A stretch of 40,588 nt of DNA from an uncultured Methanosarcinales archaeon. Its GTDB lineage: Archaea > Nanobdellota > Nanobdellia > Woesearchaeales > CAZYIM01. Position numbers and translations under genes: made by a program. The notes under the pieces are model-generated. The model did not search any database, was not told the origin of the DNA, and saw only the letters and a list, made by a program, of their open reading frames with translations. Position 1 is the first letter of the stretch. Each line of letters begins with the position of its first letter. Positions 28,635-29,828 of the stretch are shown here, piece after piece. Location of the stretch: positions 1-40,588 of the forward strand of contig CAZYIM010000027.1 of assembly GCA_964647565.1 (NCBI GenBank), in the 5' to 3' direction.

Positions 28635-29828
28635 TTACTCAATAATCATTCTTCCTCTGACACCATCAGAATAAAGTCTTACTGTTTGACCATTTTGCAT
28701 CAAATCCTTCAGTTTTTGTAGTGCAGTGTAATTAGATACTCTTATGCCATCACATTGAATTGAAGTGGTTCCATTAAATTCAGAAACATTGCAGAAAACA
28801 GATGGCACTTTCATCAAGGATTCTCTTGCTCCATGATCCCGGGTATAGTCAAAAACAGGATACAAAATTGCTTGTATTCCAGGCATTGATACATGAGGAT
28901 ATTCAAAATCCCTATCTCCACTCGGAATCATTAATGATACTGAGTTTGAATACTGATTTCCTGAATAAAATTTTTTAATAGTTAACTGTTTTCCTTCAGG
29001 TGATAAGACCCCGATTGGTAAATCAAAATTCACAACCCGTTTTCCAGATTCAGAAACTAACGAATAATTTGCTTTTTCAATTTTCCTAAATGGTTTAAAC
29101 TGGTACACAACAGGAATTCCATCTTCTATATGCTTTCCAAATTCCATTTCAAACGTCATTCCCATATCTGCAAACTTTTCAAATGTGAATATCTTATCGT
29201 AAGTCTTTATTGCCGCTTTCAGATATTCCCTATCATCTGGAGGAATTTCAAATCCGTTCTCATGTTCATAGGGTCTAACAAAATAAGTAAATGATTCTTC
29301 TACCCGATTATACAACGCTGTTCTTTTATTCCTGCTAATTACAACTAACTTCTGATTATTGGGATGTTGAAATAATGCATCGCTTTTAGAATGAGCATCC
29401 TGTATCAGCACTTTTGGTTTATCAGGAATATCTAAGCCTAATCCTCTACAATACCAACCAATTCTTTCCTGAATCCTTTTGATATTATATTTCACTAATC
29501 CATCTCTATGCTCATCCCCAGAATTAAAATTTTCATCTAATGAAGCAATAGCCATCAGTTGTTCAAGAGTTAAATGGTTTGGAGTATATGCTTCTCCAGG
29601 TCTGGGTCCACTAATCTTTAACAGAGTCTCTTGTGTACTATAACTTCCAAAAACCCCTGAAAATCCATTCCATTGACAAGAACCATCCGCCCTAACAACT
29701 AAATTAGCTCTTGAATCTAATCTCTTTGCTTCCTCTTCTGAGTATATCTCTGCTGTAGGGATTCCTCTTTTTGTGACATATTCTAAAATCGCCCTTTTGG
29801 CACCGATTGATAGTTCTTGTGTAAACAT
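28635..29828 (-). CDS. PPDK_N-like (PEP-utilising enzyme ATP/pyruvate-binding domain, ATP-grasp type) protein, standalone.
   Basis: 397 aa. LVVRADGSCQWNGFSGVFGSYSTQETLL parallels the hallmark [25 protein letters not shown] block of PEP synthase / PPDK / rifampicin phosphotransferase N-domains. N-terminal IGAKRAILEYVTKRGIPTAE resembles GGKAANLxE…G.PVP. Confidence 0.5.
   Translation of the reverse strand: MFTQELSIGAKRAILEYVTKRGIPTAEIYSEEEAKRLDSRANLVVRADGSCQWNGFSGVFGSYSTQETLLKISGPRPGEAYTPNHLTLEQLMAIASLDENFNSGDEHRDGLVKYNIKRIQERIGWYCRGLGLDIPDKPKVLIQDAHSKSDALFQHPNNQKLVVISRNKRTALYNRVEESFTYFVRPYEHENGFEIPPDDREYLKAAIKTYDKIFTFEKFADMGMTFEMEFGKHIEDGIPVVYQFKPFRKIEKANYSLVSESGKRVVNFDLPIGVLSPEGKQLTIKKFYSGNQYSNSVSLMIPSGDRDFEYPHVSMPGIQAILYPVFDYTRDHGARESLMKVPSVFCNVSEFNGTTSIQCDGIRVSNYTALQKLKDLMQNGQTVRLYSDGVRGRMIIE

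Follow-up and report, generated by a model that had tools for sequence, protein, structure and literature searches.

A two-domain protein with a dikinase-type ATP-grasp domain and a predicted phosphohistidine domain, encoded beside an MVP homolog on an archaeal contig

The target gene and its family

The stretch of DNA analysed here, referred to as the window, comprises positions 1 to 40,588 of contig CAZYIM010000027.1 (assembly GCA_964647565.1), and the subject of this report is a gene on its minus strand at 28635 to 29828, hereafter the target gene, which encodes a protein of 397 amino acids (aa) and lies next to the gene of a homolog of the vault protein MVP. In a first-pass annotation made from the sequence alone the target gene had been placed at these coordinates, in this orientation, and 89 bp downstream of the co-oriented MVP gene (spacer at 29829 to 29917), and all of this was found to be exact. 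The same annotation described the product as a single ATP-grasp module of the PPDK_N type, that is, of the type of the nucleotide-binding domains of phosphoenolpyruvate (PEP) synthase and pyruvate phosphate dikinase (PPDK). The features of the gene that are needed below are the following.

28635..29828, minus strand: target gene, 397 aa plus stop, a two-domain protein of ATP-grasp and His-swivel type (judged from the open reading frame, family conservation and an AlphaFold2 model)
29043..29828, minus strand: PPDK_N-type ATP-grasp (nucleotide-binding) domain, residues 1-262
29796..29798, minus strand: codon of Lys11 in the G-x-K motif (GAKRA), with Lys in 73/74 family members
29640..29699, minus strand: VRADGS...FSGVFGSY block, VVRADGSCQWNGFSGVFGSY, residues 44-63, which holds Arg46 and Gly58
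29082..29159, minus strand: two adjacent beta-strands, TFEMEFGK...VVYQFKPFRK, residues 224-249, with Glu229, Gln243 and Lys245
28638..29036, minus strand: predicted swivelling beta/beta/alpha phosphohistidine carrier domain, residues 265-397
28833..28835, minus strand: codon (CAT) of His332, the proposed phospho-accepting histidine, invariant in the relatives (76/76)
29829..29917, minus strand: spacer of 89 bp between MVP and the target gene, in which T7 and T8 tracts follow directly on the MVP stop and an AGGT precedes the ATG by 8 nt

The open reading frame starts with ATG, and this start is backed by homologs that open with the same MFT.EEL..GAKRA. In a database clustered at 90% the family consists of five proteins, one of them in a Candidatus Woesearchaeota metagenome-assembled genome (MAG), and the target is 34-68% identical to the members of this small family. 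When a profile of the five close homologs was searched exhaustively against 1.84 billion cluster representatives, 121 proteins were found at E ≤ 1e-3, most of which are 360-430 aa long and match the profile over most of their length; a word-indexed homolog search with the 77-sequence profile described next added just three further proteins. Seventy-seven of the 121 relatives make up the family alignment, called A2, from which the conservation counts given here derive and whose consensus reads G.K.A.L.Y...IP...IVRSS.P.E...FEG.F.S ... HPN ... EFG...YQ.RPFKK ... FGITP.EG ... FL.H...R ... VR..SDG. The target-family proteins are singletons in metagenomes, and their sources include the Woesearchaeota MAG and a Melainabacteria MAG. 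The Woesearchaeota homolog P0005 (loci L001/L009, 1542-2696) is under-called: its annotation gives 310 aa, but the open frame extends from 1542 and corresponds to positions 16-389 of the family profile, which takes in the greater part of the N-terminal ATP-grasp domain. At another locus, L013, only two short target-family fragments are found at 3478-3863 (profile positions 4-41 and 333-382), and this remnant is probably a decayed pseudogene.

The two domains

The N-terminal domain could be connected to known enzymes by its relatives, by the joint profile and by the structure model. The Pfam family PF01326 was matched individually by 23 of the 77 aligned relatives, with a best E-value of 8.3e-14, and its gathering score of 27 bits was passed by P0135 (38.3 bits) and P0132 (28.9 bits) at HMM positions ~75-179. 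The A2 profile matched the PEP synthase structures 9dae (3.5e-6), 2ols (1.1e-4) and 8a8e (3.2e-4), and it matched the ATP domain of rifampin phosphotransferase (RPH; 5hv6) at 0.01. The alignment with the PEP synthases passes through their VRSS...F.G block (VRSSATAED...FAGQ), and when A2 was aligned by hhalign with E. coli PpsA (taken from NC_000913.3), the target segment LVVRADGSCQ-WNGFSGVFGSYSTQETL was placed on the PpsA VRSS block. Both the profile alignment with 9dae, 2ols and 8a8e and the PpsA alignment put Arg46 on the VRSS arginine, and the earlier observation that the VRADGS…FSG block mirrors the PEP synthase signature is thereby borne out, although the target reads VRAD...FSG and does not retain the Ser-Ser pair of VRSS. 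In terms of sequence, residues 44-63 are the single segment in which homology is statistically detectable.

An AlphaFold2 model computed on the 77-sequence alignment had a pLDDT of 94 and a pTM of 0.92 and no segment below 50; with five sequences alone the pLDDT was 46. In a Foldseek comparison of the model with the PDB the leading matches were PEP synthase 2ols (2.8e-6), PPDK 1kbl (1.7e-5) and rifampin phosphotransferase 5hv1, and generic ATP-grasp enzymes ranked below these dikinase-type structures. The alignments extended over 453 columns for PEP synthase and 551 columns for PPDK 1kbl with a query of 397 aa, and, judged on length alone, this is consistent with a collinear match that continues past the nucleotide-binding domain. 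By comparison of the model with known structures the ATP-grasp fold of the target is nearest to the nucleotide-binding domains of PEP synthase, PPDK and RPH. Because of the PF01326 matches of the relatives, the PEP synthase matches of the joint profile and the fold matches of the model, the PPDK_N-type assignment of the first-pass annotation holds at the level of superfamily and fold, and the assignment of residues 1-262 to an ATP-grasp domain of the dikinase lineage (PEP synthase/PPDK/rifampin phosphotransferase) is supported by transitive comparison of profiles and by the high-confidence model.

The residues expected at a nucleotide site are conserved throughout the family, namely Lys11 (73/74), Arg46 (76/76), Glu229 (77/77) and Gln243 (77/77); Gly58 and His155-Pro156 are also conserved, and position 245 is Arg in 67 of the 77 relatives and Lys in the target. 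Judging from the motif, and not from an alignment made by a tool, Lys11 would be the equivalent of the GGK lysine near the N-termini of PPDK and PEP synthase. Glu229 and Gln243 lie on modelled strands 224-232 and 239-249, which are adjacent, and from the shape of this motif Glu229, Gln243 and Lys245 would correspond to the Mg/ATP-binding Glu, Gln and Arg of PPDK. In C. symbiosum PPDK we take Lys22, Arg92, Glu323, Gln335 and Arg337 to be the counterparts of the nucleotide-site residues of the target. The structure of the PPDK R337A mutant (2dik) was among the Foldseek matches of the target model. When the EMEFG...YQFKPF block was searched by itself against the PDB, nothing but chance matches to carbonic anhydrase was obtained. 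The family-wide conservation would fit an active nucleotide site.

The ATP-grasp domain is not the end of the protein. The modelled fold of residues 265-397 matches the phosphohistidine domains of Enzyme I of the phosphotransferase system (PTS) and of PPDK, with other swivelling-fold proteins slightly lower. This domain opens with a conserved hairpin, G273-x-x-(S/T)-P-x-G279, and closes with a conserved SDG...G hairpin, and the opening hairpin, G273-I-(T/S)-P-x-E-G279, resembles the G..aSPG..G hairpin with which phosphohistidine domains begin. Known phosphohistidine domains have the layout ...giVt..GG.tSHaaI.ARe.giPavvg....dG..v.vDg..G.v, and the model gives the C-terminal part of the target this same layout around His332. 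In the model His332 is at the N-terminus of helix 332-340, which follows strand 320-323 and a loop and is followed by strand 343-351, and this modelled position is topologically the same as that of the catalytic His of Enzyme I and PPDK. Alignment by hhalign with a fragment of E. coli Enzyme I, which is identical to residues 154-241 of Enzyme I in the PDB, was non-significant, and in it the family His332 falls on Enzyme I His189; with the His domain of PpsA there was a weak collinear alignment of 57 columns with a pairwise E of 0.025. The modelled fold leads us to regard residues ~265-397 as likely a phosphohistidine domain. The PEP/pyruvate-binding TIM barrel (PF02896) is absent, as the swivel domain is the last one and runs to the C-terminus at residue 397. 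The annotation had stated that both the phosphohistidine and the PEP-binding domains are lacking; this is right for the PEP/pyruvate domain, but a His swivel domain is probably present, given the modelled fold and the invariant histidine.

Proposed activity, alternatives and the MVP neighbour

The explanation that we favour, with a probability of about 0.6, is that the target is a minimal, self-contained member of the PEP-utilising/dikinase superfamily in which His332 is phosphorylated and which serves an acceptor in trans, independently of MVP. The ATP-grasp domain (residues 1-262) would bind Mg-ATP through Lys11, Arg46, Glu229, Gln243 and Lys245, the swivelling domain (residues 265-397) would present His332 to the nucleotide site, where it would be phosphorylated, and the swivel domain would then move off and pass the phosphoryl group to an acceptor outside the polypeptide, which could be a protein or a small molecule held on a partner. 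The open reading frame with its conservation, the transitive homology to PPDK_N, the predicted folds of the two domains and the invariant residues are shown; we infer the use of ATP, the phosphorylation of His332, the transfer in trans and the products, which could be AMP and Pi or ADP. A dikinase-type enzyme is normally built of three modules, which provide the ATP site, the His carrier that swivels and the site for the acceptor, and enzymes that combine a dikinase-type ATP-grasp domain with a swivel domain are already known; what is unusual here is a family of ~400 aa with two modules and no acceptor domain that is mostly invisible to Pfam. If the family works, reduced archaeal genomes and some bacteria encode a version stripped to two modules, a layout that is hardly known apart from VadK of Mycobacterium tuberculosis and that has here diverged too far for standard domain libraries, and the protein would be a candidate ATP-driven histidine phosphodonor for a protein or a metabolite.

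Several results weigh against this explanation. PF01326 did not match the target itself even at E ≤ 1, the only match of the target in Pfam (E ≤ 1) and NCBIfam was a chance match to methanethiol oxidase at 0.09, and a PDB sequence search with the profile of the five closest homologs gave no match. In the close family RSS is replaced by RAD or RSD (VRAD/VRSD) and the usual Glu by Gln52, and these replacements could change or abolish the nucleotide chemistry. The phosphohistidine family PF00391 matched neither the target nor, at E ≤ 10, any of 27 C-terminal fragments, the C-terminal profile found nothing relevant in the PDB, and His332 is one residue out of register with PpsA His421 in the hhalign alignment. 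Finally, the loci that were read yielded neither an acceptor nor a conserved partner gene.

Since the target has no third domain that would bind an acceptor, its closest functional analogues are VadK or a dikinase with its acceptor module elsewhere in the genome. VadK (Rv1127c) is a truncated PPDK that evolved from canonical PPDK with loss of the pyruvate domain, and it autophosphorylates on His422 in an Mg-ATP-dependent manner and acts on partner proteins, binding enzymes of the methylcitrate cycle (PMC13400623). The architecture of the target is like that of VadK in that an N-terminal ATP-grasp domain and a phosphohistidine domain are present without a PEP/pyruvate domain; it differs in that the target has 397 aa, is not seen by Pfam and is a member of a family that is separate and has diverged deeply. 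VadK is larger, with ~490 aa. With PEP synthase and PPDK (PF01326 + PF00391 + PF02896) the target shares the ATP-grasp fold, the VR..F.G block and the swivelling His domain as the next in order, but it has no TIM barrel, is less than half the size, reads VRAD and not VRSS, and is below the threshold of every family HMM. PTS Enzyme I (2wqd, 5t12, 5woy) differs in that it is charged by PEP at a TIM barrel and not by ATP at an ATP-grasp domain, and its sequence similarity to the target is undetectable.

Among the alternatives the one that survives best, although we consider it unlikely, is that the target is a small-molecule kinase or dikinase, acting for example in detoxification or salvage, with the acceptor bound at the domain interface or at the helical insert (residues ~62-137). 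RPH (PMC4844700) and HpeHI (PMC12167813) follow the same ATP-grasp and swivel logic, and in both the acceptor site is on an extra domain or subunit. RPH has ~850-880 aa and a large rifampin-binding domain that is the acceptor site (PMC4844700; 5hv1/5hv6), for which there is no equivalent in the target, and in HpeHI, like phenylphosphate synthase a two-component aromatic dikinase, the swivel His is on another subunit together with the substrate domain (PMC12167813; 9goj), whereas in the target the swivel is fused to the ATP-grasp domain and no second-subunit gene is adjacent. No counterpart of the rifampin-binding domain or of the HpeH substrate domain is present in the model, and without experiments this alternative is hard to separate from the explanation that we favour.

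It is improbable that the target is the N-terminal two-thirds of a split PEP synthase or PPDK that makes PEP together with a separate PEP/pyruvate TIM-barrel subunit. The two domains are in the same order as in residues ~1-500 of PEP synthase and PPDK, and split dikinases do exist, HpeHI being an example (PMC12167813). However, a PEP-utilizers_C-like gene was found neither in the window nor among the Pfam-annotated neighbours at the five target-family loci with readable flanks, and the neighbourhoods of the target family are unrelated to gluconeogenesis. Genuine halves of PEP synthase and PPDK are easily detected, whereas the target escapes both PF01326 and PF00391. In the window there is no paralog of the target and no PEP-utilizers_C gene, and no scanned open reading frame has a PEP/pyruvate-binding domain.

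The neighbour of the target leads to the next alternative. The MVP homolog is an open reading frame of 790 aa at 29918 to 32290 on the minus strand, the next gene upstream on the strand of the target, and its identity, as given in the first-pass annotation, was confirmed by Pfam matches to MVP_shoulder (3.9e-28), Vault_3 (7.9e-8) and Vault_4 (1.5e-5), all above the gathering scores. It is full-length and is on an apparently DPANN-type archaeal contig, and its closest relatives (50-57% identity) are on contigs with genes for eIF-1A, diphthamide synthase and archaeal ribosomal proteins. The archaeal MVPs in the literature all come from Asgard archaea (PMC12962969), and in a preprint of 2019 it was stated that archaea have none (10.1101/872010). 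The annotation had proposed that a truncated, kinase-like module consisting of the ATP-grasp domain only is co-transcribed with MVP and acts as a cargo, a modifier or a regulator of a prokaryotic vault particle. We regard this as very doubtful. In its favour, the two genes have the same orientation with 89 bp between them, the one upstream encodes a genuine MVP homolog, an AGGT resembling a Shine-Dalgarno sequence precedes the ATG and there is no clear promoter in the spacer; the protein, however, is not ATP-grasp-only, and what follows speaks against a functional link.

The pairing of the two genes, whose conservation in related genomes had been proposed as a check, is not conserved in either direction. 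The target-family loci that were read were L001/L009, L002, L003, L004, L007/L008, L010, L011/L014/L015 and L012, of which L003, L010 and L012 are short, and an MVP homolog is absent from all eight of these distinct loci. Conversely, a target-family gene is absent from the five loci of the closest MVP relatives (four read as DNA and P0008 as a gene table). The neighbours are listed below, first those of the target-family genes and then the genes next to MVP.

L002, target-family neighbours: folC and purH
L004, target-family neighbours: an unknown gene and a malate/lactate dehydrogenase-like C-terminus
L001/L009, target-family neighbours: thrC, thrB and an HhH-GPD glycosylase
L011/L014/L015, target-family neighbours: a radical-SAM/HhH protein, a methyltransferase and endonuclease V
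L007/L008, target-family neighbours: DNA ligase and hicA
P0008, next gene at the MVP locus: a 1018-aa unknown protein
P0012 and P0010, next gene at the MVP loci: a convergent ADP-forming acyl-CoA synthetase
P0013, next genes at the MVP locus: small unknown genes

When genome contigs were scanned with the MVP protein, there was no match. The small genes that lie upstream of the nearest archaeal MVPs were considered as conserved partners and rejected, as the window lacks them and they are common only to two loci that are nearly identical. On the other side, the five MVP loci and eight target loci that could be read do not include one from a genome shown to carry both genes, and a lineage-specific or recent association of the target with MVP is conceivable; this counts against the independence from MVP that we assume.

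The two genes also differ in composition. The GC content at third codon positions (GC3) is 0.239 in the target gene and 0.570 in MVP, the highest of 15 window genes measured, and the GC content steps from 0.34 to 0.44-0.50 at ~29.9 kb, that is, inside the spacer. T tracts are usually terminators in archaea, and the T7 and T8 tracts after the MVP stop would be an archaeal terminator, while the AGGT would be a Shine-Dalgarno site for the target. A scan of 28200-32800 for sigma-70 promoters and hairpin terminators found no more than expected by chance, with models that are not suited to archaea. Nothing testable supports the proposed co-transcription. Two compact domains account for the whole protein, and the target is no longer than orthologs that are not beside MVP and has its termini where theirs are, with no extra N- or C-terminal segment and no low-confidence tail. 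An INT-like MVP-interaction segment is not apparent from the comparison with orthologs, which was made without an INT profile and which a surface-mediated interaction would escape. Because synteny fails in both directions, GC3 breaks at the spacer and there is no extra segment, the link to the vault is not supported, and nothing positive was found for a role as cargo, modifier or regulator. The adjacency of the target and MVP is most likely fortuitous, and the target is most likely a unit of its own, situated where a low-GC block of ~6 kb ends. For vault biology this result is negative but useful, since it means that the target should not be treated as a vault partner unless direct evidence is obtained. 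That the ~400-aa family is a hitherto unrecognised, Pfam-invisible class of minimal ATP-grasp and His-swivel enzymes for histidine phosphotransfer to proteins, of which this one was recruited beside MVP to phosphorylate or enter a vault-like shell, would make it the first enzyme partner of a prokaryotic vault, but we think this highly improbable. Least credible of all is that the target is an ordinary ATP-grasp ligase of the carboxylate-amine type whose C-terminal domain is structural and not a phosphocarrier, as the sole significant sequence link is to PPDK_N and not to ligase families, the leading fold matches are of the dikinase type, and an absolutely invariant His occupies the canonical position of the swivelling domain.

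The surrounding region

The target is the last gene of a low-GC block of ~6 kb at ~23900-29900, in which the GC content is 0.25-0.36 compared to 0.42-0.50 on either side, with sharp edges. The genes in this block are those for a DUF2283 protein, a queuosine-salvage protein (Q_salvage; GC3 0.18), a GNAT protein, an MNT/HEPN pair and the target, and the block is likely a variable or acquired region. A chimeric assembly as the main cause of the GC break was rejected, as the block is flanked on both sides by DNA of ~0.42-0.45 GC in the same contig. Scans of the whole window with Rfam gave no match and a tRNA scan found none, and neither the target nor MVP matched the PADLOC defence models. Between the target stop and the start of the MNT gene there is a non-coding stretch of 338 bp (28297-28634) with a GC content of 0.30, no Rfam match and no open reading frame.

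Within the block a direct repeat of 60 nt is present at 24846-24905 and 26732-26791, with copies that are 95% identical and 1886 bp apart, and it brackets the queuosine-salvage gene and two small open reading frames. The GNAT gene (26744-27181, minus strand) overlaps at its 3' end with the second copy, and it looks as if an insertion had duplicated the end of the gene that it entered. Downstream of the target there is an overlapping pair of genes on the minus strand, 27257-27721 and 27709-28296, of which one has a winged helix-turn-helix and a nucleotidyltransferase domain (NTP_transf_2/Polbeta; PADLOC PDC-M05A, 6.6e-17) and the other is a weak HEPN match; the pair resembles a toxin-antitoxin system of the MNT-HEPN kind or a candidate defence module.

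Among the target's relatives there is a Melainabacteria-type subfamily in which, on independent contigs, a protein of 337-338 aa without a Pfam match is encoded, divergent, immediately upstream of the subfamily gene (L007, 4663-5676, minus strand; L008, 1305-2318, minus strand; and the P0245 contigs). This protein may be a partner of the subfamily or its acceptor. As a partner of the target this 337-aa neighbour was rejected, as it has no relative in the window. Near the other end of the window, at 793-1701 on the minus strand, there is a gene for an abortive-infection-like protein of the AbiTii family (Pfam 9.9e-16; PADLOC 7.1e-18).

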